This document shows, piece by piece, positions 39,708-56,828 of a DNA stretch of 64,000 bases. The position numbers and the translations under genes are program-made. The DNA comes from Alphaproteobacteria bacterium (lineage in GTDB: Bacteria > Pseudomonadota > Alphaproteobacteria > Bin95). Under the pieces are notes generated by a model. It had not been told where the DNA came from and did no database searches. It saw only the letters and a list, made by a program, of their open reading frames with translations. The stretch lies in NCBI GenBank assembly GCA_022826185.1, contig JAJDVH010000153.1:5070-69069 (forward strand), given 5' to 3'. Position 1 is the stretch's first letter; each line of letters begins with the position of its first letter.

Positions 39708-40649
39708 GTGCCGAAACGCTTCTGGCATTATTTCGGCATTGTTGCCGCGGTCGCCGTCTTCGCCGCCGCCGTCTGGGCGCTGACCTGGCAGCTGCGGGAC
39801 CTGCGCTGGGACGAACTCGGCCGCCAGCTTGAAGCGATCCCGCTGCTGCGAATCCTGGCGGCCGTGGCCGCAACCTTCGCCGCCTATCTGGTGCTGGCGG
39901 CCTATGACCACACCGCGTTCCGCTATATCGGAAGGCGCATGTCCTTCGGCCGGGTCGCGTTCGTCTCCTCCATTTCCTACGCCTTCAGCCACAACCTGGG
40001 CTTCGGGGCGCTCACCGGCGGCGCGGTCCGCTTCCGCTTCTACACGGACTGGGGCGTTCCTCCCGGCGATGTCGCCCGCGTCGTCCTCTATGCCGGCATC
40101 GTCTATTACCTCTGCGCGCTTTCCGTGGGCGGCCTGCTGACGCTTCCCAATGCGGCGGTGCTGGCCGATGCGCTGGAGCTCGACGCCGGCCTCATCCGCG
40201 CCGTTGCGGCCGTCTGGGTGCTGTCCGGCGCGCTCTATGTCCTGTGGTGCCTCTGCGGCAGGCCGGTTGTGCGCGTTGGCGAGCGCGAGGTGACGCCGCC
40301 GAAAATCAAACACGGACTGATCCAGTTCTGCGTGGGCATCCTCGAATGGGTGTTCACCAGCGCCGTGCTCTACCTGGTGCTGCCGCCGGATTTCGGCATG
40401 CCCTACTGGCATTTCGTCGCCGTCTATGTGCTGGCCTACATGGCCGGCTATATCAGCCATGTGCCGGGCGGCCTCGGCGTGTTCGAGACGGTGCTGCTGG
40501 TGCTGATGCCCGAGACCGTCCCGACCCATGTCGTGGCCGCGGGCATCATCACCTACCGGGTCATCTATTTCCTTCTGCCGCTGGCCCTCGCGCTCGCCCT
40601 CTTCGGCGCCTACGAAGCCTCCCGGGGGCGCTTCTCGCGCAAGGGGTAG
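39708..40649 (+). CDS. Lysylphosphatidylglycerol-synthase-TM-domain (MprF flippase-like, UPF0104) membrane protein
   Basis: GTG start; 313 aa, about 8 TM, LPG_synthase_TM-like. Confidence 0.6.
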   Translation: MPKRFWHYFGIVAAVAVFAAAVWALTWQLRDLRWDELGRQLEAIPLLRILAAVAATFAAYLVLAAYDHTAFRYIGRRMSFGRVAFVSSISYAFSHNLGFGALTGGAVRFRFYTDWGVPPGDVARVVLYAGIVYYLCALSVGGLLTLPNAAVLADALELDAGLIRAVAAVWVLSGALYVLWCLCGRPVVRVGEREVTPPKIKHGLIQFCVGILEWVFTSAVLYLVLPPDFGMPYWHFVAVYVLAYMAGYISHVPGGLGVFETVLLVLMPETVPTHVVAAGIITYRVIYFLLPLALALALFGAYEASRGRFSRKG

Positions 40650-40718
40650 GGCGTTGTCTCGCACCGGAACGCATGTTAGCCCTTGCCGGCACCTGCACCC
40701 GGCCTCGGAGTTTTCCGA

Positions 40719-43700
40719 ATGACGGCCCGCTTCTTCGAGCGCCCGATTCTCAACTCGCCATACGAATATCCGTCGCGACATTGGGAGCTTGACGGGACCA
40801 CCCGCCAGCCGACCGACCGAATCCTCGAACGCCGTCGGGATGTCGATTTCATTACGCCCATTCCTGCGGCCAGAAAGCGGCGGAACACGCAGGAACAACT
40901 GATTCTTCACGAAACCGCGGAACGGATCGGGACGGAGAGCCAGCAATACAAGCTGGCCGAGATGATCGCCAGCATCCGCCGCCAGGTCGATATCTGGCGC
41001 GCGCTGCCGGAGGCGCAATGGCGGGTGACGCCGGAAACGGCCCGGCTGCTACGGCATTGGCGCAATCATAAATTCAACGATATCAGGCCGTTCTTCTGCC
41101 AAGTGGAGGCCGTGGAGACCGCGATCTGGCTGACGGAGGTGGCGCCGTCACAGGGAAGCGCCGGGCGAGCTTTTCTCGAAGAACTCGAAAGGGCAAACGA
41201 AGACGCGAATCCCGGCTTATCCCGGCTGGCGCTGAAACTCGCGACAGGTGCAGGCAAAACCACCGTTATGGCCATGCTCATCGCCTGGCAAACCGTCAAC
41301 GCGGTGCGCCGGCCCGGCAGCCGGCGTTTTACTCGGGGGTTCCTCGTCGTCACTCCCGGCATCACTATCAAGGACCGGCTGCGCGTGCTCCAGCCCAACG
41401 ACCCGGACAGCTACTACCGGGAGCGGGAACTGGTGCCTGCCGACATGCTCGGCGACCTCGGCAAGGCGAAGATCGTCATCACCAACTACCACGCCTTCAA
41501 GCCCAAGGAGACGATGGCGGTTTCAAGGGGCGGCCGTGCGCTCCTGCAGGGCAGGGGGCCGGATCTGCGCACGGTGGAAACCGAAGGTCGGATGGTCCAG
41601 CGCGTGGTCGAGGACCTTATGGGTCTGAGGAATATCCTCGTGCTCAATGACGAGGCGCATCACTGCTACAGGGAGAAACCCGCCGACGAAGACGACGAAG
41701 GCGTTCTCCGGGGAGAGGACCGCACCGAGGCCGAGAAGAACCGGGAAGCCGCCCGGCTCTGGATATCCGGGCTGGAGGCGGTTGACCGCAAGCTCGGCCT
41801 CGCCCGCGTGGTCGATCTTTCGGCCACACCGTTCTTCCTGCGCGGATCGGGCTATGCGGAAGGCACGCTTTTCCCCTGGACGGTGAGCGACTTCTCGCTG
41901 ATGGACGCCATCGAGTGCGGCATCGTCAAGCTGCCGCGTGTGCCGGTCGCCGACAACATTCCGGGCACCGAGATGCCGACCTTCCGTAACCTCTGGCAGC
42001 ATATCGGCAAGGACATGCCGCGAAAGGGCAGAAGCAAGGCGTCCGGGCTGGACCCGCTGCGACTTCCTACCACGCTGCAGACGGCGCTGGAGGCTCTTTA
42101 CGGCCACTACGAGGATACTTTCGGGCTATGGCAGGAACAGGGCATCGAGGTGCCGCCCTGCTTCATCGTGGTCTGCAACAACACGGCTACCTCAAAGCTG
42201 GTTTACGACTTTATTTCCGGGTTCCACCGTACAGGTCCTGACGGTTCTCAAGCGTTGGTACAGAGCCGCTTCCCGCTTTTCCGGAATTTCGACGAGTTGG
42301 GCGCTCCACTCGCCCGCCCGCATACCTTGCTGATCGACAGCACGCAGCTTGAGTCCGGGGAGGCACTGGACCGGAATTTCCGCGCTGCGGCAGCGGATGA
42401 GATCGAACGTTTCCGCCGGGAGATCGTTGAACGCACCGGTGACCGGCAGCAGGCCGAGAAGTTGTCCGATGCAGATTTGTTGCGCGAGGCGATGAACACG
42501 GTCGGCAAGGCGGGCCGGCTTGGCGGTGCGACCCGTTGCGTGGTGTCGGTTTCCATGTTGACGGAAGGCTGGGATGCCAACACTGTCACCCATGTGCTCG
42601 GCGTCCGCGCGTTCGGCACGCAGCTCCTCTGCGAGCAGGTCGTCGGCCGGGCCTTGCGCCGACAGTCATATGAGTTGAACGAAGACAAACTGTTCGACGT
42701 TGAATATGCCGACGTCCTCGGGATCCCCTTCGATTTCACCGCCGAACCTGTTGTGGCGCCGCCACAGCGGCCTCGCAAGACCGTCCAGGTCCGGGCCGTC
42801 CGCCCAGAACGCGACGGGTGCGAAATTCGCTTCCCGCGCGTAGCCGGCTATCGGATCGAACTGCCGGAGGAGCGGTTGGAAGCGGAATTCAATACGGATT
42901 CGACGCTGGAACTGACCCCCGATCTCGTCGGCCCTACGAGAACCCGAAACGAGGGTATTGTCGGTGAAGGCGTCGATCTGACGGTAGAGCGCTTGGAAGG
43001 CATGCGGTTGCGGACGATTCAGTTTCATCTCGCAAACCATCTGTTGAACACGAAGTATCGGGACTCCGGCGAGGAACCGAAATTGCACCTGTTCGGCCCG
43101 CTCAAACGGATTACGCGCGAATGGCTGGACGATCACCTCGTTTGCAGGGGCGGCACCAAGCCGGCGCAAGTGCTGTATCCCTCATTGAAGGAGGTAGCTT
43201 GCGAGCGGATCAAGCAGGCAATCGACCGGGGCAGCGCGCAGCGCAAGGCGAGAGAAGACTCAAGCGAACCTTCCATTACGGCCGTGCTCGACCCCTACAA
43301 CCCTTCCGGTTCCACGGCCCATGTCCGTTTCACCACGACGAAGCAGTCTCTCTGGACGACGAATCCCGACCGTTGCCATATCAACTATGCCGTCTATGAC
43401 AGCGGCTGGGAGGCGGAGTTCTGCCGTATCGCCGATGCCCATCCCCGCGTCCGTGCCTGGGTGAAGAACCACGGCCTCGGCCTGGAGGTGCCCTATCGGT
43501 CCGGTTCCGAGACCCGGACCTACATTCCGGACTTCATCGTCCTGGTCGATGACGGGCGCGGTGTGGATGACCCGCTTCACCTGGTCATCGAGATCAAGGG
43601 CTATCGCGGTGAGGACGCGAAGGACAAGAAAGGGACCATGGACACCTACTGGGTGCCCGGCGTGAACGCGCTCGGTGATTACGGTCGCTGGAAGTTTACG

Positions 43701-43886
43701 GAATTCACGGATGTGTATGACATGGAAGATGATTTTGCCCGCATCGTGGGGCCGGAATTCGACCGCATGGTCGGCCAATTCCGTTCGTCCACCGAAATCG
43801 AATCCAGCAGATGGCTGGCAGAGAGCGGAGGCAGCGCTCCGGACCTCGAATACATTCCCCGTCGTCGAAGTGAAGCGGCCGGATGA
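40719..43886 (+). CDS. Type III restriction enzyme Res subunit (SF2 helicase plus C-terminal PD-ExK endonuclease)
   Basis: Walker A LATGAGKTT, DEAH box VLNDEAHH, and a C-terminal PD…EIK motif (YIPDFIVLV…VIEIKG). Start at ATG 40719. Confidence 0.85.
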   Translation: MTARFFERPILNSPYEYPSRHWELDGTTRQPTDRILERRRDVDFITPIPAARKRRNTQEQLILHETAERIGTESQQYKLAEMIASIRRQVDIWRALPEAQWRVTPETARLLRHWRNHKFNDIRPFFCQVEAVETAIWLTEVAPSQGSAGRAFLEELERANEDANPGLSRLALKLATGAGKTTVMAMLIAWQTVNAVRRPGSRRFTRGFLVVTPGITIKDRLRVLQPNDPDSYYRERELVPADMLGDLGKAKIVITNYHAFKPKETMAVSRGGRALLQGRGPDLRTVETEGRMVQRVVEDLMGLRNILVLNDEAHHCYREKPADEDDEGVLRGEDRTEAEKNREAARLWISGLEAVDRKLGLARVVDLSATPFFLRGSGYAEGTLFPWTVSDFSLMDAIECGIVKLPRVPVADNIPGTEMPTFRNLWQHIGKDMPRKGRSKASGLDPLRLPTTLQTALEALYGHYEDTFGLWQEQGIEVPPCFIVVCNNTATSKLVYDFISGFHRTGPDGSQALVQSRFPLFRNFDELGAPLARPHTLLIDSTQLESGEALDRNFRAAAADEIERFRREIVERTGDRQQAEKLSDADLLREAMNTVGKAGRLGGATRCVVSVSMLTEGWDANTVTHVLGVRAFGTQLLCEQVVGRALRRQSYELNEDKLFDVEYADVLGIPFDFTAEPVVAPPQRPRKTVQVRAVRPERDGCEIRFPRVAGYRIELPEERLEAEFNTDSTLELTPDLVGPTRTRNEGIVGEGVDLTVERLEGMRLRTIQFHLANHLLNTKYRDSGEEPKLHLFGPLKRITREWLDDHLVCRGGTKPAQVLYPSLKEVACERIKQAIDRGSAQRKAREDSSEPSITAVLDPYNPSGSTAHVRFTTTKQSLWTTNPDRCHINYAVYDSGWEAEFCRIADAHPRVRAWVKNHGLGLEVPYRSGSETRTYIPDFIVLVDDGRGVDDPLHLVIEIKGYRGEDAKDKKGTMDTYWVPGVNALGDYGRWKFTEFTDVYDMEDDFARIVGPEFDRMVGQFRSSTEIESSRWLAESGGSAPDLEYIPRRRSEAAG

Positions 43887-44254
43887 TTCTGGTGGATACG
43901 GTGGTGTGGATCGATCATCTGCGCGGTACCGAGCCTCATCTTGAGGAGATGTTGGACGCCGGTAACGTGGTGATGCATGCCATGATTCTCGGTGAGCTTG
44001 CGTGCGGCAACATTCCGAAGCGAGCAGAATTTCTGCAACGAATGCAGGATCTGCCGAATATCCGCGAGTGCACTCATGTCGATGTCATGTCCATGATTGA
44101 AACGAACGGGCTTATGCGCAGGGGAATCGGCTTTGTGGACGCGCATCTTCTTTGTTCAGTTCTCGAGCACGCTGGCATGACGCTCTGGACACGGGACCGA
44201 AAATTGAAGCGGATGGCGGAGACCCTTGGAGTTTCCTATGTGGAAAATGCTTAA
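43883..44254 (+). CDS. Orphan PIN-domain ribonuclease (VapC-like) embedded between res and mod
   Basis: 123 aa (MILVDTVVWIDHL…GFVDAHL…TRD) with PIN acidic residues. ATGA overlap with the res stop, no cognate antitoxin ORF. GC about 52% against a background of about 67%. Confidence 0.7.
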   Translation: MILVDTVVWIDHLRGTEPHLEEMLDAGNVVMHAMILGELACGNIPKRAEFLQRMQDLPNIRECTHVDVMSMIETNGLMRRGIGFVDAHLLCSVLEHAGMTLWTRDRKLKRMAETLGVSYVENA

Positions 44255-44355
44255 CGAGGCTGTTGGGGGCGAAATGCGACGTCCGGACACGAAGACAGTG
44301 CGTGCGGGGAGTTCCCGCTCGATGGCCTCCCTGCGCTTTGCCGGAAACGGTTGAT

Positions 44356-47151
44356 ATGGCGCGCCGCAGCAGGAAGACGCCGAAATCCGTCGAGACCCTC
44401 ACCCACGGCGAGGCGTCCAGGCGGAACATTCCGACGGCGGAGTTCCATCCCGTCATGGCGGAGGAGGAGAAGGCGCCGCGCCCGGTGGTCTATGAGCGCA
44501 ACCGGGACCTCGATCCGCAGCTTGTCTGGCGCGGGAAGGAGGCGCAGGACGCGGCGGACCTCACCGTGCAGGCGCCGCCGCTCTACATCCAGGAGAAGGT
44601 GCATCCCAAGGCGCTGGTAGACGACCTGCTGCGGCAGACGAAGGCGCGCCGCGACGAGGAGGCGGAGGCGGCGCCGGACCTGTTCGCCGATTTCAACGGC
44701 CTGCCGGACGAGGACGCGCGCACGGAGTTCTACCGCCACGACGCCAACTGGTCGAACCGCATGATCCTGGGCGACAGCCTGCAGGTGATGGCGAGCCTTG
44801 CCGAGCGCGAGGGCCTGCGCGGCAGGGTGCAATGCATCTATATCGACCCGCCCTACGGCATCCGCTTCAACTCCAACTTCCAGTGGTCCACCACCAGCCG
44901 CGACGTGAAGGACGGCAATGCCGCCCACATCACCCGCGAGCCGGAGCAGGTGAAAGCCTTCCGCGACACCTGGCGCGACGGCATCCACTCCTATCTGACT
45001 TATCTCCGCGACCGGCTGACGGTGGCGCGGGAACTGTTGACGGAAAGCGGCTCGGTCTTCGTGCAGATCGGGGACGAGAACGTTCACCGGGTCCGGGCGT
45101 TGATGGATGAGGTGTTTGGGGACAAAAATTTCGTGTCAGTAATCACCTTAAAGAAGACAGCAGTTCAGACTGATTTAGCGCTACCCAGTGTTTCAGATTA
45201 CATCATATGGTTCTGTAAGGATATAAATTCAATAAAGTATCGACAAGTATACCTTTCGAAAGGTATAGGAGATCCGGGATCCGAACAATACAAATTAATT
45301 CGAATAGAGGGAGGTCATTTCAGACGGATAAAGGATCAATCTAGCTATACAATTCACGAGCTATGCCGACCAGATAACCTAACGTCTAGTCACGAATACA
45401 GTAGAGGTCGAGAAATTATCGAGTTTCGGGGGCGTCAATTTTCTCCAGGTAATCGCTATTGGTCAACGAGCCCGGAATCTATCCAACGTCTGGAGAAAGC
45501 AGATCGTCTACACGCGGGAACAGGGCGATCCTTGAGCCACGTTAGGTTCCTTAGCGACTTTTCGATTATGCCACTTTTGAATATCTGGACTGATACAGGC
45601 ACAGGCGGTTACGGAGACGAAAAATACTATGTGGTACAAACTACCTCAAAAATTATTCAACGCTGCGTTCTGATGACCACCGACCCCGGCGATCTCGTGC
45701 TGGACCCGACCTGCGGCTCTGGCACCACTGCATATTGCGCAGAGCAGTGGGGCCGGCGATGGATCACCATCGACACCTCCCGCGTGGCGCTCGCGCTGGC
45801 GCGGGCGCGGGTCATGGGCGCGCGCTATCCCTGGTATCTGCTGGCCGACAGCCCGGAGGGGCAGCGCAAGGAGGCCGAGATTATCCGCCGTGCTCCCTCG
45901 GAAACGCCGACTGGCGGCAATATCCGACAGGGCTTCGTCTATGAGCGCGTGCCGCATATCACGCTGCGCAGCATCGCCAACAATGCCGAGATCGACGTGA
46001 TCTGGGAGAAGTGGGAAGAGCGGCTGGCGGCGCTCCGTGGCCAGTTGTCAGTGACCGGTGGCCAGGAAGAAACTCTCGAAGAATGGGAAGTCCCGCGCGA
46101 GCGTCCCGACCACTGGCCACCGGCCACCGACTCCTTGCTCGCCGAATTCTGGGAGCTTCGCATAGCCCGGCAGAAGGAGATCGACGCCTCCATCGCCGCC
46201 AGGGCCGATACCGAATATCTCTACGACAAGCCCTATGAGGACCGGTCCCGCATCCGCGTCGCCGGCCCCTTCACGGTCGAGAGCCTGGCGCCGCACCGGA
46301 TGCTGGCCGTCGACGAAGACGACGAGCTGTTCTCCACCCTCGGCGAAAAGGGCCGCACCTATGGCGAAGCGCCCGACTTCGCGGAGATGATCCTGGAGAA
46401 CCTGAAAACCTCTGGCGTTCAGCAGGCGCATAGGGAGGATCGGATTGCCTTCTCCTCCCTCGCGCCCTGGCCGGGCGACGGCTATATCTGCGGCGAGGGC
46501 CGCTACGAGGAGGCGGACGGCAAGCCGCGCCGCGCCGGCATCTTCATCGGCCCGGAATTCGGCACCGTCTCGCGCCCCGACCTCTCCGCCGCTGCCCGCG
46601 AGGCGGCCGAAGCCGGCTTCGACGTGCTCATCGCCTGCGCCTTCAGCTACGACGCCCATGCCAGCGAGTTCGAGCGGCTGGGCCGCATCCCCGTCCTCAA
46701 GGCGCGCATGAACGCCGACCTGCACATGGCCGACGATCTGAAGAACACGGGCAAGGGCAATCTCTTCGTCATCTTCGGCGAGCCCGACATCGATATCCTG
46801 GACGAAGGCGGCGACGAAATCAGGGTCAGGATCAACGGCGTGGACGTGTTTCACCCGAATTCCGGCGAGGTGCGCAGCGACGGGCCGGACGGCATTGCCT
46901 GCTGGTTCGTGGACACGGACTACAACGAGGAGAGCTTCTTCGTCCGCCACGCTTATTTCCTGGGCGCCAACGACCCCTACAAGGCGCTCAGGACGACGCT
47001 CAGGGCAGAGATCGACGAGGACGCCTGGGCCACGCTCAACAGCGACACCTCGCGCCCGTTCCCGCGCCCGGCCTCCGGCCGCATCGCCGTCAAGGTCATC
47101 AACCATCTGGGCGACGAGGCGATGAAGGTGTTTCGAGTGGATAGTGGCTAG
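44356..47151 (+). CDS. Type III restriction-modification Mod subunit (beta-class N6-adenine/N4-cytosine DNA methyltransferase) with a long C-terminal extension
   Basis: Motif IV DPPY (IYIDPPYGIRF) precedes motif I (DPTCGSGTT), with a variable region between. 931 aa. Start at ATG 44356. Confidence 0.85.
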   Translation: MARRSRKTPKSVETLTHGEASRRNIPTAEFHPVMAEEEKAPRPVVYERNRDLDPQLVWRGKEAQDAADLTVQAPPLYIQEKVHPKALVDDLLRQTKARRDEEAEAAPDLFADFNGLPDEDARTEFYRHDANWSNRMILGDSLQVMASLAEREGLRGRVQCIYIDPPYGIRFNSNFQWSTTSRDVKDGNAAHITREPEQVKAFRDTWRDGIHSYLTYLRDRLTVARELLTESGSVFVQIGDENVHRVRALMDEVFGDKNFVSVITLKKTAVQTDLALPSVSDYIIWFCKDINSIKYRQVYLSKGIGDPGSEQYKLIRIEGGHFRRIKDQSSYTIHELCRPDNLTSSHEYSRGREIIEFRGRQFSPGNRYWSTSPESIQRLEKADRLHAGTGRSLSHVRFLSDFSIMPLLNIWTDTGTGGYGDEKYYVVQTTSKIIQRCVLMTTDPGDLVLDPTCGSGTTAYCAEQWGRRWITIDTSRVALALARARVMGARYPWYLLADSPEGQRKEAEIIRRAPSETPTGGNIRQGFVYERVPHITLRSIANNAEIDVIWEKWEERLAALRGQLSVTGGQEETLEEWEVPRERPDHWPPATDSLLAEFWELRIARQKEIDASIAARADTEYLYDKPYEDRSRIRVAGPFTVESLAPHRMLAVDEDDELFSTLGEKGRTYGEAPDFAEMILENLKTSGVQQAHREDRIAFSSLAPWPGDGYICGEGRYEEADGKPRRAGIFIGPEFGTVSRPDLSAAAREAAEAGFDVLIACAFSYDAHASEFERLGRIPVLKARMNADLHMADDLKNTGKGNLFVIFGEPDIDILDEGGDEIRVRINGVDVFHPNSGEVRSDGPDGIACWFVDTDYNEESFFVRHAYFLGANDPYKALRTTLRAEIDEDAWATLNSDTSRPFPRPASGRIAVKVINHLGDEAMKVFRVDSG

Positions 47152-47267
47152 TGGCCGGTGGCCAGTGGATAGTGAATGGTAGATAGTGGATAACGGTTGC
47201 AGGCGGGCCTCGGCCGGACTATCCACTAGCCACTGACCACTAGCCACTGACCACTGGCGGCCGCCTC
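47134..47267. repeat. Palindromic heptamer-repeat element, copy 1 (full inverted repeat). Left arm is about seven NNAGTGG heptamers; right arm is five CCACTNN heptamers plus GGCGGCCGCC
   Basis: gagtggatagtggctagtggccggtggccagtggatagtga… loop gttgcaggcgggcctcggccggac …tatccactagccactgaccactagccactgaccactggcggccgcc. The left arm overlaps the mod stop; the right arm ends 2 nt before the ATG at 47268. Confidence 0.8.
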
Positions 47268-47519
47268 ATGGAAACCTGGATTACGCCGGCGCTGGTCGTC
47301 GCGCTGGCCGCGCTCATGATCGGTATGATCCGCTCGCTGCGCAGCGATCTGGAACAGCGCATCGACAGGGTCGAACAACGAATGGATCGCCTGGAGACCG
47401 GCCAGGTCGAGTTGAAGGAAGGTGTAGCCGAAGTGCGGGGAGAACTGAGGTTTGTCCGCGACTACATTCTTCGGCGCAACATGCCGATGGAAGAGCCGCC
47501 GGCTGCGCCAGCGGAATAG
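47268..47519 (+). CDS. Small membrane-anchored coiled-coil protein (hypothetical; DUF1640-like architecture)
   Basis: 83 aa with an N-terminal TM (ITPALVVALAALMIGMI) and then a heptad coiled coil (LEQRIDRVEQRMDRLETGQVELKEG). Flanked by two copies of the heptamer-repeat element. Confidence 0.5.
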   Translation: METWITPALVVALAALMIGMIRSLRSDLEQRIDRVEQRMDRLETGQVELKEGVAEVRGELRFVRDYILRRNMPMEEPPAAPAE

Positions 47520-47523
47520 GCCA

Positions 47524-47605
47524 ATGGCTGGTGGATAGCAGTTGCAGGCCGGCTTCGGCCGGACTATCCACTAGCCACTGACCACTAACCACTGGCGGCC
47601 GCCCC
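47524..47605. repeat. Palindromic heptamer-repeat element, copy 2 (short left arm, same loop and right arm)
   Basis: ggctggtggatagca gttgcaggccggcttcggccggac tatccactagccactgaccactaaccactggcggccgcc cc ATG; about 90% identical to the right half of copy 1. Confidence 0.8.
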
Positions 47606-48787
47606 ATGGACCTCAATTTCGCCCCTGAAGACGAAGCCTTTCGCGACGAGTGCCGTTCCTTCCTGGCCGAGACGCTGCCGGGCGATGTGGCGCGCAAGGT
47701 CGGGCTCGGCATCCAGCCGACGCTGGCCGAGACGATGGCGTGGCACAGGGCGCTTTACGACAAGGGCTGGGTCGCGCCGAATTGGCCGACCGAATGGGGC
47801 GGGCCCGGCTGGACCGTGACGCAGAAATACATCTGGGACGAGGAGCAGGCGCTCGCCAATGCGCCGCGCCCGATCCCCTTCGGCCTTTCCATGTGCGGGC
47901 CGGTGCTGATGGCCTTCGGCACCGAGGAGCAGAAGCGGGACAACCTGCCGCGCATCCTCTCCGGCGAGCGCATCTACTGCCAGGGCTATTCCGAGCCCGG
48001 CGCCGGCTCCGACCTCGCCGCGCTCAAGACCCGCTGCGAGGTGCATGACGACCGCCTCGTCATCAACGGCCAGAAGATCTGGACGACGGCGGCCCACTGG
48101 GCGAACTGGATTTTCTGCCTCGTGCGGACATCCTCGGAAGGCAAGCGGCAGGAGGGCATCTCCTTCATCCTGATCGACATGGCCACGCCCGGCATCGAGG
48201 TGAAGCCGCTCATCACCATCGACGGCCTGCACGAGGTCAACGAGGTGTTCTTCACCGATGTCGTCGTGCCGCGCGAGAACCTCGTGGGCGAGGTGGACCA
48301 GGGCTGGACGATCGCCAAATACCTGCTGGGCCATGAGCGCATGGGCGGCGGGGCGCTGGGTAGCCAGAAGAATGGCCTGCGCTCGCTCAAGGAGATTGCG
48401 GCGGACCAGGGGCTGGAGGAGGACGCGACCTTCATGCGCAAGGTGGCGGAGGTCGAGATCGAGCTCCAGACGCTGGAAATGCAGATGCTCCGCATGCTCG
48501 CCGCCGTCTCGGCGGACAAGGAGATCGGCGCCGAGTCGTCGATGATCAAGATACGCCGGACGGAGATCCAGCAGCGCCTCTCCGAGCTCAAGATGGAGGC
48601 GGCGGGCTACGACGCGGGTCCCTACCAGATCGAGGCCATGGAGCATGGCTGGAACGAGGAGCCGGTCGGCCCCGACTACGCCAACGCGCTCGCGGCGAAA
48701 TATTTCAACGACCGCAAGCACACGATCTTCGCCGGCTCCAACGAGATCCAGCGCAACATCATCTCGAAGCGGGTGCTGGGCCTTTGA
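47606..48787 (+). CDS. Acyl-CoA dehydrogenase family protein
   Basis: 393 aa with ACAD N, middle, and C domains (…YSEPGAGSDLAAL…). Start is immediately after repeat copy 2. Confidence 0.85.
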   Translation: MDLNFAPEDEAFRDECRSFLAETLPGDVARKVGLGIQPTLAETMAWHRALYDKGWVAPNWPTEWGGPGWTVTQKYIWDEEQALANAPRPIPFGLSMCGPVLMAFGTEEQKRDNLPRILSGERIYCQGYSEPGAGSDLAALKTRCEVHDDRLVINGQKIWTTAAHWANWIFCLVRTSSEGKRQEGISFILIDMATPGIEVKPLITIDGLHEVNEVFFTDVVVPRENLVGEVDQGWTIAKYLLGHERMGGGALGSQKNGLRSLKEIAADQGLEEDATFMRKVAEVEIELQTLEMQMLRMLAAVSADKEIGAESSMIKIRRTEIQQRLSELKMEAAGYDAGPYQIEAMEHGWNEEPVGPDYANALAAKYFNDRKHTIFAGSNEIQRNIISKRVLGL

Positions 48788-48920
48788 GGCGGCCTCGTCC
48801 CGCAAGCCTGCCGGACTTGTTCCACTGCCGTCCGGTTGGCGTCCTCCTCGCCGCCCCGGCCCCGAGCCCTGTCGGCTTCACACATCTGTGGCGTCGGCAT
48901 AGCGTCGCACCGCCCATAAC

Positions 48921-49047
48921 CGTCACCCCGGACTTGATCCGGGGTCCAACTCCGGTTCTCGCGGCGGCCCCGGCGGTTGGACATGCTCTCCACCGGTGGC
49001 AGGCGCAGGCGGTCAGGGATGGACCCCGGATCAAGTCCGGGGTGACG
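48921..49047. repeat. REP-like element: two inverted 27-nt hairpin units cgtcaccccggacttgatccggggtcc … ggaccccggatcaagtccggggtgacg
   Basis: Perfect 27-nt inverted repeat separated by about 73 nt. Each arm is itself a CCCCGG/CCGGGG hairpin. Intergenic between the ACAD and E1-alpha genes. Confidence 0.8.
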
Positions 49048-49083
49048 GAAGGGGGTGTCCGGGCATGACAGGAGACGGCTGAC

Positions 49084-52290: not shown

Positions 52291-52320
52291 CGTCACCCCG
52301 GCCCCCGAGCCGGGGTCCAT
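52291..52320. repeat. Single REP-like hairpin unit (cgtcaccccggcccccgagccggggtcca) in a convergent intergenic region
   Basis: Same GTCACCCCGG…CCGGGGTCCA ends as the units at 48921-49047, with a different loop. Confidence 0.6.
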
Positions 52321-52465
52321 CCCTGACTCGGGCCACCGCCGCAGCCGGAGAAGAACAAGTTGGACCGCTGAAGCTGCCGCCAGAACCGTGGCTGGGCCCC
52401 GGCTCGGGGGCCGGGGCGACGGTGGAGGTCGCTCGGCCATCGGTTCCGGTCAACGACCGTTGGTA

Positions 52466-54567: not shown

Positions 54568-55818
54568 CTAGGTTCTTGCGCGGTGGGCCTGGCTTCGCGG
54601 CAGGATCAGCAGGTTGCCGATGAGCTGCATGCCCTTGTCGTCTTCGGCGGCCGCGCGTTCGCGCAGCGCAAGCAGCGCCCTGCCGGCGGCCGTCTCGCCC
54701 CAGAACCAGTCGGAGAGGTCCTGTGAGGCCGCCCCTCCGGGCTGCGCCGTGGCGGCTTCCGTGTAGAAGGCCATCAGGTCGTCGCAGGCCAGTTTCAGGG
54801 AACGCGATAGCTTCCGCTCGGGACCCGGATCCTTCGGCTCCCCGCCGTCGGCGTAGCGGCTGACGATCCGCGCGGCGTCCTCGATATCGTAGCCGCTGGC
54901 GCCGACGGTCGTGCGTCCGCGCCGGTCCTTCGCCGCGTCCCACCAGGGCCGCAGCCGGGCGATTTCGTCCGCGACCAGGCGCTCGAGGCTGCCGGCCGAG
55001 GCCGCGTCCGGTCGCGGAAGGGACACGGGACAGGCCCAGCCGTCGTAATCCGCCGGCTCCGGCGCGGGGTCGGGAAACTCCTCCAGCACGGGGCCGGCAG
55101 GCCGGTCCAGCAGGTCGAGGGCGGCCCGCAGCACACGGAGCTGGAATGCCGGGTCGTCGGGCGCGCCGAGCGGCCTGCCGAGCTCGAACGGCACCGACAG
55201 CGTGCGCGGATTGGCGATCGCCTCGGCGTGTTCGTGAACCAGGGCAATGACCACCGTGGCAATGCCCTTGCGCTCCAGATAGTGGGCGAGCGCGCACACG
55301 GCGCGCGTGCAGTTCGGTCAGACGGGGACCAGCAGCGCCGTATCGACGCCTTCGGCCTGCATGGCCGCCGCGACATCCTCCGCGAAGGGCTGCATCGGCG
55401 CGGGGTCGCTCGCGCCCATGAAGGAATAATGGTGGGCCGCAACGCCGCCGATCTCGCCGCTGGCGGCCATCTCGTTCAGGCGCTCGACCGGATAGACGAT
55501 GTTGAGGTCCTGCTGGAAGCCGGTCCGGTCGTAATTGACCGAGATATGACTCATCACGATGTCGTTGGCGTCGGCATCGGCCGGCAGCACCCGGTAATCG
55601 ACGGCTCCCGGGCCGAACGGGTGGTCTCCCCGCCTGCCGAGCCCGGCGGAGGAAACGACCGCAACCCGGCGTTCGGACAAGGGCGGCCCGAGCACGAATG
55701 CGCCGCCCTCCATTTCGGGAAGCGGCAGGCGGGCGAGATGCCGGGCCACGCTCTCCGGCATGTCGGCGTAACGGGTCATGGACGCTCCTTGCGGAATCTG
55801 CGGCGATGCGCGAAACAA
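54568..55818 (-). CDS. Glycine/betaine/sarcosine/D-proline reductase selenoprotein-B-family protein with an in-frame TGA (candidate selenocysteine, U-P-N-C motif)
   Basis: ORFs 55318-55818 and 54568-55299 are in the same frame, separated only by TGA at 55318-55320 plus 7 codons. Read-through gives …ALLVPV-U-PNCTRAVCALAHYLERKG…, one continuous ~416-aa protein of this family. Confidence 0.6.
55290..55306 (-). promoter_or_regulatory. Candidate bacterial SECIS-like hairpin: GCGCGC-CGUGU-GCGCGC, starting 11 nt 3' of the in-frame UGA
   Basis: mRNA reads UGA CCGAACUGCAC GCGCGC CGUGU GCGCGC UCGCC. Six-bp GC stem with a GU-containing loop. Confidence 0.35.
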
Positions 55819-55847
55819 CGGGACGACGCTACATAGAGTGAGGCGAG

Positions 55848-56828
55848 ATGCAGGTCAAAGCCATACAGATCGACAGGCCCGGCCCCCCGTCGGCGATGGA
55901 GTTCCGCACGGTGACGGTCGGCGAGCCCGGCCCCGGCGAAGCCCTTATCCGGCACACGGCAATCGGTTTGAACTACATCGACACTTACCACCGGTCCGGC
56001 CTTTACGACCTGTCCATGCCGAGCGGGCTCGGCAGCGAGGGAGCGGGCGTCGTCGAAGCGGTCGGGGAGGGTGTCGACCATGTTCGGCCGGGCGACAGGG
56101 CCGCCTATGCAGGCGGCGCCCCCGGTTCCTATTCGGAAGCGCGCACAATGCCCGCCGACCGGCTGGTGAAGCTGCCGGACGAAATCGACGACAGGCAGGC
56201 CGCAGCCATGATGCTGAAAGGCATGACCGTCGAATACCTGCTGAACCGCACCTTCAAGGTGTCGGCGGGCCAGACCATCCTGTTCCATGCCGCGGCCGGC
56301 GGTGTCGGCCTGATCGCTGGCCAGTGGGCCAGCGCGCTCGGCGCGACCGTGATCGGCACGGCGGGCGGACCCGAGAAGTGCGCCCTCGCGGCGAAATACG
56401 GCTACGACCGCATGATCGACTACACGCAGGGCGGCATTGCGCGGCAGGTTCGCGAGTTGACCGGCGGGGCCGGCGTTCCGGTCGTCTATGACAGCGTCGG
56501 CAAGGCGACCTGGGAGGAATCGCTGGATTGCCTCGCGCCGCGCGGGGTGATGGTGTCGTTCGGCAATGCGTCCGGCCCGGCTCCGTCCTTTGCGCCCGGC
56601 ATTCTCGGGGCCAAGGGTTCGCTTTACCTGACCCGCCCGTCCCTCGTGCACTACACACTGACACAGCCGGAGGTGCAGGCGTCGGCCGATGCGCTGTTCG
56701 GCATGGTGATGTCGGGGAAGGTCAGGATCGAGGTGAACCAGACCTATGCGCTCGCCGACGCCAGGAAGGCGCATAAGGACCTGGAGGGACGCCGGACCAC
56801 CGGGTCGACCGTCCTGCTGGTGGAGTGA
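55848..56828 (+). CDS. NADPH:quinone oxidoreductase (MDR superfamily, Qor-like)
   Basis: 326 aa with a Rossmann motif (AAGGVGL). Start MQVKAIQIDRPG. Confidence 0.85.
   Translation: MQVKAIQIDRPGPPSAMEFRTVTVGEPGPGEALIRHTAIGLNYIDTYHRSGLYDLSMPSGLGSEGAGVVEAVGEGVDHVRPGDRAAYAGGAPGSYSEARTMPADRLVKLPDEIDDRQAAAMMLKGMTVEYLLNRTFKVSAGQTILFHAAAGGVGLIAGQWASALGATVIGTAGGPEKCALAAKYGYDRMIDYTQGGIARQVRELTGGAGVPVVYDSVGKATWEESLDCLAPRGVMVSFGNASGPAPSFAPGILGAKGSLYLTRPSLVHYTLTQPEVQASADALFGMVMSGKVRIEVNQTYALADARKAHKDLEGRRTTGSTVLLVE

Follow-up and report, generated by a model that had tools for sequence, protein, structure and literature searches.

A duplicated heptamer-arm hairpin with a promoter-like core around a small gene between a Type III methyltransferase gene and an acyl-CoA dehydrogenase gene of an alphaproteobacterium

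The window analysed here is a 64,000-nt stretch of the alphaproteobacterial contig JAJDVH010000153.1 (assembly GCA_022826185.1, positions 5,070 to 69,069). Between its Type III methyltransferase gene mod and an acyl-CoA dehydrogenase gene we found two copies of a palindromic element whose arms are built from tandem 7-nt units, AGTGGNN in the 5' arm and CCACTRR in the 3' arm, and which enclose a small gene of 83 amino acids. This heptamer element is real and non-random. A phage moron is a small gene that has its own promoter and terminator and is inserted between two other genes. The reading towards which we lean, somewhat and no further, is that the element is a portable connector serving as both insulator and promoter, which was duplicated around an inserted moron-like small gene and has taken over the upstream region of the dehydrogenase gene. 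The element combines known kinds in a new variant form and is not a new category.

As we picture it, each copy would be a self-contained connector spanning the stretch between the stop of one gene and the start of the next and made of four parts: an AGTGGNN 5' arm starting at the upstream stop, a core promoter for the downstream gene, a CCACTRR 3' arm that would become a leader with stops in three frames and no Shine-Dalgarno sequence, and a GC box 2 nt before the ATG. In RNA reading through from upstream, the arms would pair into a long stem at which such RNA would stop, pause or be cleaved, and the stem would also protect the upstream mRNA end and block ribosomes. RNA started at the internal promoter would carry the unstructured 3' arm alone and would be translated, and the connector would therefore insulate the neighbouring genes from each other. 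Historically, the small gene, which appears to encode a membrane protein, would have been inserted together with its upstream region between mod and the dehydrogenase gene, and a second connector copy would have replaced the native dehydrogenase promoter and leader. Flanked by two direct repeats of about 95 nt, the small gene would form a cassette open to excision or exchange. If true, this would be a compact natural insulated expression unit of about 100 nt, comprising an all-frame stop, an anti-read-through stem, a promoter and a leader. It would also illustrate how such a unit can bring a small gene to a new place and substitute itself for the promoter of an adjacent metabolic gene, here on the border of a hotspot for defence islands.

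Anatomy of the two copies and their promoter-like core

The whole block, connector 1 plus the small gene plus connector 2, occupies 470 bp of the forward strand (47136-47605), on which all its parts lie. Copy 1 (47136-47267) is a long hairpin. Its 5' arm holds about eight AGTGGNN heptamers (47136-47192), which Tandem Repeats Finder reported with period 7, 8.1 copies and type AGTGGAT, and which close all three frames, the mod stop (47149-47151) included. The core follows (47196-47224), with GTTGCA at 47196-47201, a 17-nt spacer and CTATCC at 47219-47224, and then the 3' arm of five CCACTRR units ending in TAG, TGA, TAG, TGA and TGG (47223-47257). By reading, a GC box, GGCGGCCGCC, stands at 47256-47265 and is followed by TC and the ATG of the small gene at 47268. 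Copy 2 (47517-47605) is the same element with a short 5' arm, GGCCAATGGCTGGTGGATAG (47519-47538), which starts at the last base of the small-gene stop codon (TAG, 47517-47519) and is 80% identical to 47153-47172. Its core (47541-47569) has GTTGCA at 47541-47546 and CTATCC at 47564-47569 around a 17-nt spacer containing a small CCGGC-TTCG-GCCGG stem-loop. Four CCACTRR units ending in TAG, TGA, TAA and TGG (47568-47595) come next, and the second GGCGGCCGCC box (47594-47603), followed by CC, leads to the dehydrogenase ATG at 47606. The element had been described beforehand as ending 2 nt ahead of two start codons, which is what the two boxes do.

The repetition is supported by several measures. 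Tandem Repeats Finder found 7-nt tandem units in at least three copies, with period 7 or 14, at 47136-47192, 47218-47256 and 47563-47594, and a perfect 14-nt unit, CCACTAGCCACTGA, in 2.4 copies at 47223-47255 and 1.9 copies at 47568-47594. The string CCACTRRCCACTRR, with one mismatch at most, matches 11 times in the window against 0.08 expected, ten of the 11 being within the two copies. The loop motif has two copies only, with no third copy of the element anywhere in the 64 kb. The arms of copy 1 (47136-47173 and 47218-47255, 38 nt each) are 87% complementary and separated by 44 nt, and the RNA fold reaches -78.2 kcal/mol (z = -6.5, none of 200 shuffles being as good). The preliminary description, which rested on the letters alone, had proposed a duplicated palindromic heptamer element with a large hairpin in copy 1, and the RNA fold and the repeat finder bear this out. 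It had also taken copy 2 to be loop and right arm only, and had put the repeated unit at about 75 bp. Copy 2 in fact has its own short 5' arm and also forms a hairpin (arms 47519-47538 and 47564-47583, 85% complementary, z = -3.3). An ungapped direct repeat of 64 nt joins 47186-47249 to 47531-47594 (92% identity, spacing 345 nt). When one 7-nt indel is allowed, as well as one 21-nt indel in the 5' arm seen by reading (three extra units in copy 1), the repeat extends from the upstream TAG to the downstream ATGGA in both copies. The stop-to-start unit, from the TAG at 47149-47151 to the ATG at 47268 and from the TAG at 47517-47519 to the ATG at 47606, is thus about 95-125 nt. Both arms are kept at about 90% identity between the copies and across strains.

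The stops (TAG, TGA or TAA) recur at 7-nt steps, which leaves no frame open in either 3' arm. Each array ends 10 nt ahead of its ATG, and in both copies an in-frame stop stands 27 nt ahead of it. No GGAGG-type ribosome-binding site was seen, by reading, ahead of either ATG, where GGCGG alone is present, while AAGGAG is used elsewhere in the same organism. The leaders (3' arm plus start region) fold alone like shuffled sequences (z = -0.2 for connector 1) and become strongly folded together with the 5' arm. We infer that the small gene has the 3' arm of connector 1 as its 5' leader. The 5' arm of copy 2 contains, at 47527-47534, the E. coli Chi octamer GCTGGTGG in exact form, and versions with one mismatch recur in the arms, for example GCTAGTGG, GCCGGTGG and GCCAGTGG. 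The octamer is probably there by chance, about five being expected per window by estimate.

The middle of the element, at first described as a plain GC loop, is instead its most conserved part, and it looks like an alphaproteobacterial sigma-70-type promoter. In an alignment of six copies, TTGCA and ACTATCCAC are invariant at fixed spacing and the spacer and heptamers vary. At locus L129 (L numbers denote the loci recovered for comparison) the heptamers have decayed and both core boxes are intact, and at L123 the GGCGGCCGCC box is partly kept as GGCGACCGCC. Homologues of the small gene that lack heptamers have CTTGCC-N17-CTATCG (L128) or CTCGCC-N17-CTATCG (L130) about 32 nt ahead of their ATG. 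The core resembles the published alphaproteobacterial sigma-70 consensus, CTTGAC-N17-CTATAT in S. meliloti (PMC2873474). Only three TTG-N19-CTAT sites occur on the two strands of the window together (128 kb) against 1.33 expected, two of them being the copies. The third is TTGACC-N17-CTATGT on the minus strand (55833-55858); it is followed by a leader of 45 nt, then by AAGGAG as ribosome-binding site, then by the ATG at 55778. To judge by its sequence, it is a textbook alphaproteobacterial promoter layout and an internal positive control for the motif. All three sites lie 36-46 nt upstream of a start codon. Furthermore, the TTGCA of connector 2 stands 64 nt ahead of the dehydrogenase ATG, and by our own count the native TTGCAA (L136) and TTGCAT (L137) stand the same 64 nt ahead of it. 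The end of connector 1 in the window and the native dehydrogenase start in L136 share a 10-nt identity, GCCTCATGGA. A sigma-54 promoter was also considered: its consensus is TGGCAC-N5-TTGC, and by reading the TGG-N7-TTGCA found here is one base short, so this candidate was rejected.

The block in related strains

Comparison of loci between related metagenome strains shows the block as a discrete unit. L001 and L002 are other assemblies of the window's own strain and share its order, namely res, a PIN-domain gene, mod, connector 1, the small gene, connector 2 and the dehydrogenase gene. L137 has an empty site, where a lysyl-PG-synthase-like gene is separated by 73 bp from the dehydrogenase gene. 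L136 and L138 have an insert of about 480 bp (plus an insertion sequence in L138), the native upstream region and then the dehydrogenase gene, whereas L140 has mod, ending FRV-TAA, directly followed by the native upstream region and the dehydrogenase gene, with neither small gene nor heptamers. In blastn, L140 1439-2910 corresponds to window 45661-47135 and L140 3003-4194 to window 47606-48793. Homology breaks off at 47135|47136 and picks up again at 47606, so that 470 bp in the window take the place of 92 bp, and those 92 nt of L140 are the native promoter region, which is seen in L136 too. The native region occurs in all the more distant relatives, therefore the block is most simply an insertion or replacement in the lineage of the window and L132. 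The native dehydrogenase upstream region, present in L136, L137, L138 and L140, is replaced by connector 2 in the window lineage. An earlier suggestion that element and small gene form a cassette fits these comparisons, the block being absent from precisely those four loci, and the small gene with the element recurs in two other contexts: at L123-126, after a hydantoinase gene, where the 5' arm is about 20 nt, and at L129 in the decayed form. In both, the core, the 3' arm and the GC box precede the small-gene homologue.

L132 and L133 carry a different island, in which an MNT/HepT pair and a 61-bp mod remnant are followed by connector 1 without its 5' arm, the small gene and connector 2. In L132 the 5' arm of copy 1 is deleted and the mod remnant, which matches window 44922-44982, is joined to position 47194. 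This position is the start of the loop and, against L132, the right edge of a variable defence island. The hotspot spans window 40644-47193 and L132 4798-6066, between the lysyl-PG-synthase-like gene and the small gene, and holds a Type III res, a PIN-domain gene and mod in the window (6.55 kb) and the MNT/HepT toxin-antitoxin pair in L132, which is 96% related (1.27 kb). A link of the element to the restriction-modification system, as first supposed, holds as far as position at the island's edge is concerned and not beyond it. The dehydrogenase upstream site has an insertion record of its own. At L136 9440-9950 and L138 8060-9950 the insert of about 480 bp lies between the copies of a 20-nt direct repeat, cgccgccTTGCAAtccgggg, in which the native -35-like box is contained, and L138 additionally carries a DDE transposase there. 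These inserts indicate that the same intergenic site has been hit repeatedly by insertions.

The 5' arm overlaps the end of mod. Nearly all mod homologues end in ...MKVFRV* and the window protein ends in ...FRVDSG*, hence the array begins at the native stop position of mod and adds three codons. The heptamers had been said to encode the last six mod codons and the TAG. They do overlap the coding end, over five codons and the stop, the three DSG codons being the extension relative to homologues. Phase variation of mod itself (a phasevarion) was considered and set aside, as the repeats start at the native stop and stops follow in every frame.

Heptamer-arm hairpins in other genomes and viral contigs

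The specific element is confined to this neighbourhood, and hairpins with the same kind of arms are not. When one genome per species was scanned for runs of three CCACTRR units, at least 120 loci (L003-L122) came up, and a scan of a viral collection likewise gave at least 120. The counts of this section are among the matches listed. The genome loci span Acidobacteriota, Planctomycetota, Chloroflexota, cyanobacteria and other groups. The two bases after CCACT are GA in 272 units, AA in 159, AG in 103 and GG in 41, so that 93% are stop-forming (88% in viral units). Of 150 arrays in the genome sample, 73 overlap the stop of a long open reading frame (ORF), or have it at most 15 nt upstream, when read as AGTGG; read the other way, 25 of the 150 do. 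Where arrays are paired, the order is almost always 5'-AGTGG arm...CCACT arm-3', with a ratio of 28:1 in genomes and 65:3 in viral contigs. Among the hairpins, 7 of 28 from genomes and 17 of 49 from viral contigs have a loop of 4-30 nt and the layout stop, hairpin, start. A control core, CACCT, shows the same polarity (21:1), and control cores are also frequent in viral contigs (97 loci for CACCTRR and 44 for CCCATRR, against at least 120 for CCACTRR), so the CCACT core is not unique. The strict polarity, seen over genome loci L003-L122 and viral loci L141-L356 with the C-rich, T-RR stop-rich arm on the 3' side, could reflect the placement of stop codons or a preference for transcribing the G-rich arm first. 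In the literature we found no paper with tandem CCACTGA/TCAGTGG heptamer strings.

A 10-kb viral contig (L155, IMGVR_UViG_3300047586_000106) carries eight heptamer-arm hairpins between positions 330 and 6465. Seven of them stand at successive junctions of co-directional genes in its first 6.5 kb, and eight junction folds range from -41 to -99 kcal/mol. Each consists of a stop, (AGTGGNN)3-5, a short loop, (CCACTRR)4-11 and a start 2-20 nt further on, mostly with no ribosome-binding site.

Tentatively, and as a possibility that falls short of probable, we suggest that (AGTGGNN)n/(CCACTRR)n hairpins and relatives with other C-rich cores form a widespread, coherent and largely undescribed class of stop-to-start connectors of strict polarity. 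They would punctuate, insulate or couple genes in many phyla and some viral contigs and double as recombination modules that shuffle small genes, the window being one such module with a loop promoter. Their polarity, the bias to stop-forming units and the stop-to-start placement turn RNase III processing, translational coupling, insulation and modular shuffling into testable hypotheses for heptamer repeats, and this wider class is the part most worth following.

Several points count against a promoter-bearing connector at the window locus. GTTGCA-N17-CTATCC agrees with the S. meliloti consensus given above at just 7 of 12 positions, and a scan with the E. coli consensus found no promoter in the connector region. 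The conservation of CTATCCAC could reflect the innermost stem segment, and the second box of the connector 1 core (CTATCC) is part of the inner stem. An intrinsic-terminator scan gave no site in 46900-47900, and neither stem is followed by a U-tract, GGCGGCCGCC standing there instead. Most loops in other organisms are too short for a promoter and the long ones are promoter-like only sometimes (a few loops in other phyla have good motifs, for example TTGACA-N16-GACAAT at L037), so the class as a whole is not marked by a promoter in the loop. Among the loci compared, none has one connector without the small gene, no search having been aimed at that state, which leaves recombination between the copies a supposition. 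Additionally, mod, the small gene and the dehydrogenase gene could simply be co-transcribed.

Repetitive extragenic palindromic (REP) elements are intercistronic palindromes near stop codons that act on mRNA ends. The strongest alternative, which we consider unlikely although well worth keeping in view, builds on such co-transcription and takes the copies as intercistronic hairpins acting at the RNA level with no internal promoter, be it as RNase III-type processing sites, as REP-like 3'-end stabilisers or as devices for translational coupling of stop and start. The stems of 20-38 bp do adjoin stop and start codons, and the short-loop layout recurs in genomes and viral contigs, including the eight hairpins of L155. 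For the heptamer hairpin in the 5' untranslated region (5'-UTR) of H. influenzae hmw1A, RNase III cleavage is experimentally established (PMC12721329). What this alternative leaves unexplained is that TTGCA-N17-CTATCC is the best-conserved part of the element, that the motif is retained ahead of small-gene homologues without heptamers, and that it otherwise sits only at a promoter position. L132, which has lost the 5' arm of copy 1 with the rest intact, speaks against it as well.

The arms might also be a neutral by-product, polymerase slippage and inverted duplication having decorated an ordinary intergenic region with functionless repeats. The abundance of arrays with other cores in viral contigs would suit this, as would the lack, by reading, of strict compensatory changes between the arms of the two copies. 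Such a by-product is nevertheless improbable given the strict polarity of the hairpins with CCACT and CACCT cores, the 88-93% of R-R units that form stops, the preference of arrays for the position at or just after a long-ORF stop, and the retention of the arms at about 90% identity in both copies and across strains.

Mobility, slippage, known systems and neighbouring features

A miniature inverted-repeat transposable element (MITE) would be a further possibility, a non-autonomous 470-bp unit with heptamer terminal inverted repeats and a passenger gene, mobilised by a transposase in trans. The outermost arms, 47143-47173 and 47563-47593, are indeed inverted repeats (31 nt, 87% complementary), and outer arms of 31-40 nt are 75-87% complementary. 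The block is a precise indel relative to L140, and the small gene with the element is found in at least three contexts. Against this, no target-site duplication exists at 47135/47606, the block replaces 92 bp rather than simply inserting, no transposase lies within 10 kb, and small-gene homologues without arms exist (L128 and L130). Nor were dispersed copies found: in 238 kb of sequence (the window plus 11 related loci) CCACT arrays occur nowhere but beside the small gene or the dehydrogenase gene. The genome-dispersed arrays typical of heptameric long simple sequence repeats (SSRs) and the high copy number typical of REP elements and bacterial interspersed mosaic elements (BIMEs) were not seen in the same 238 kb. 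The preliminary description had counted a lack of further copies against its proposal; none came to light in the 238 kb, yet the element itself is real. The loop-plus-arm motif GTTGCAGGCNGGCNNCGNNCGNACTATCCAC had no matches in metagenome and viral collections, and the end-box motif CCACTRRCCACTGGCGRCCGCC had two metagenome matches, both by chance and without arrays. A blastn search with 47120-47620 gave nothing relevant in plasmid or phage collections, and Rfam 15 returned generic long-hairpin (microRNA-precursor) matches alone, at 18-38 bits against gathering thresholds of 77-197. With no relatives in the 238 kb or in the metagenome, viral, plasmid and phage searches, the specific element does not belong to a dispersed family of REP or MITE type, and we regard a MITE-like origin of the block as quite improbable.

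The core of an integron attC site is GTTRRRY. The GTTGCAG found here misfits it by reading and no integrase is among the called genes within 10 kb, for which reason an attC site was rejected.

Least probable of all is a contingency locus in which heptamer slippage alters leader length or stem strength and so tunes or switches both genes, small gene and dehydrogenase gene alike. Unit number does vary between strains, the 3' arm of copy 1 having five units in the window and four in L132, as had been anticipated; the 5' arm of copy 1 is, by reading, three units (21 nt) longer than that of copy 2, and heptamers are the most slippage-prone repeat size (Mrazek 2007, as cited in PMC4679880). Yet the units are heterogeneous, with TAG and TGA alternating, the arrays are short (4-5 units), non-coding and identical in three assemblies of the same strain from different samples (the window, L001 and L002), and there is no frame to switch, the mod ORF being unaffected since every frame meets a stop after it. 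As the repeats are imperfect, the same in three assemblies and unable to shift a frame, slipped-strand phase variation is unlikely, and the first description of the arrays as classic slipped-strand substrates is not supported.

To return to the promoter-bearing connector, its best functional analogue, judged by likeness of layout, is the PeSL cassette of T4-type phages. PeSL cassettes consist of a stop codon, a promoter, a stem-loop overlapping the -35 or -10 box and a start codon; they stand on either side of ORFans and give rise to indels and mini-circles (Arbiol et al. 2010, PMC2839356; Comeau et al. 2014, PMC4122927). PeSL cassette and connector alike are composite intergenic units running from an upstream stop codon to a downstream start codon, and both combine a sigma-70-like promoter, predicted in our case, with a stem-loop between or overlapping the -35 and -10 boxes: here CTATCC is part of the heptamer stem, and a further stem-loop, CCGGC-TTCG-GCCGG, lies in the spacer of connector 2. 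In both, repeated copies flank small genes with no assigned function, and the ends of indels between close relatives fall in the cassettes. They differ in that the connector lies in the chromosome of an uncultured alphaproteobacterium beside a defence island and PeSL belongs to the hyperplastic region of T4-type phages, in that the connector stem is heptamer-built and much longer and lacks the Shine-Dalgarno sequence that PeSL has at its 3' end, and in that two copies stand against about 50 per phage genome. For the connector, promoter and terminator activity and mini-circles would be predictions.

Among repeats built of heptamers, the TAACTGA units of marine Beggiatoaceae, cyanobacteria and Bacteroidetes are intergenic and form 169 direct-repeat sets with a single indirect repeat (MacGregor 2015, PMC4679880). 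Like the 3' arms they are forward tandem heptamers just upstream of start codons, close all frames and rarely or never come with a canonical ribosome-binding site, and some units share the core ACTGA (CCACTGA and TAACTGA). The unit here, however, is CCACTRR, each array is paired with an inverted arm whereas TAACTGA arrays are unpaired, and the copy number is two, compared with about 170 sets per genome. The long SSRs of Mrazek 2007, the Calothrix STRR, Xanthomonas GGGAATC and Nostoc GGGGAYT also belong among the over-represented intergenic heptameric SSRs (PMC4692102). According to that paper no detailed literature exists on over-represented bacterial heptamer repeats, which have had no accepted function since they were first noticed. 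The 7-nt period, the intergenic position and a length that varies between relatives are common to them and our element, and Xanthomonas shows occasional inverted pairs with stem-loop potential. Those units are, in contrast, G-rich, quadruplex-forming and present in hundreds of copies, and their description mentions neither strict arm polarity nor stop-codon content nor a stop-to-start placement.

Expression of hmw1A is controlled by a long RNA hairpin of the 5'-UTR that RNase III processes and that has the heptamers (ATCTTTC)n, located downstream of the promoter and upstream of the start codon, as one of its arms (PMC12721329). There the repeats make up the 5' arm within the transcript, their partner is a G-rich arm without repeats, and their number changes rapidly, whereas here both arms are repeats and a putative promoter lies between them. 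REP elements differ by their high copy number, and a moron by its prophage context, which is not visible at the window locus. The preliminary description, which knew of no described family, is right in that nothing matches the exact element; heptamer repeats ahead of starts, inverted pairs and a 5'-UTR hairpin have nevertheless been described (PMC4679880, PMC4692102, PMC12721329), and CCACTRR hairpins are common in public genomes, as the loci counted above indicate.

The small gene (47268-47519, forward strand, 83 amino acids) has 17 homologues with 55-96% identity, all starting METW. Its protein has an N-terminal hydrophobic helix followed by a coiled coil and matches no Pfam, PHROG or PADLOC family above threshold, and a search of viral contigs found no copy of the gene. 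The homologues are called as genes of 83-134 amino acids, partly through tandem 21-nt (7-amino-acid) repeats of RIDxVDxR type (L128 10090-10131, L129 10137-10203, L123 10080-10200), and some of the longer calls may simply begin upstream of the conserved METW. The upstream gene mod (44356-47151, forward strand, start taken from the gene call of L001) is a full-length PADLOC MTase_III (PDLC03632). Its middle gives no blastn match between L140 925-1438 and window 45132-45660, the flanks being 90-92% identical, which is consistent with a swapped target-recognition domain. Within mod an inverted repeat of 26 nt (46040-46065 and 46113-46138, 81% complementary) contains the heptamer-like units CAGTGAC and CGGTGGC against GCCACCG. 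The downstream gene (47606-48787, forward strand) encodes the acyl-CoA dehydrogenase, whose cluster has a member named pimeloyl-CoA dehydrogenase large subunit from an uncultured alphaproteobacterium.

Other repeats nearby are of different make. At L129 7142-7244 there is an unrelated, perfect intergenic array, (GAGGCGC)14.7. The window also holds a different palindromic family at 48920-49048 and 52291-52421, both intergenic and with the common terminal motif GTCACCCCGG-N8-CCGGGGTCCA, which by its sequence looks MITE- or REP-like. The element at 48920-49048, which is also present in L140, separates the dehydrogenase gene from the one after it; its two arms, 29 nt each and 71 nt apart, are fully (100%) complementary.

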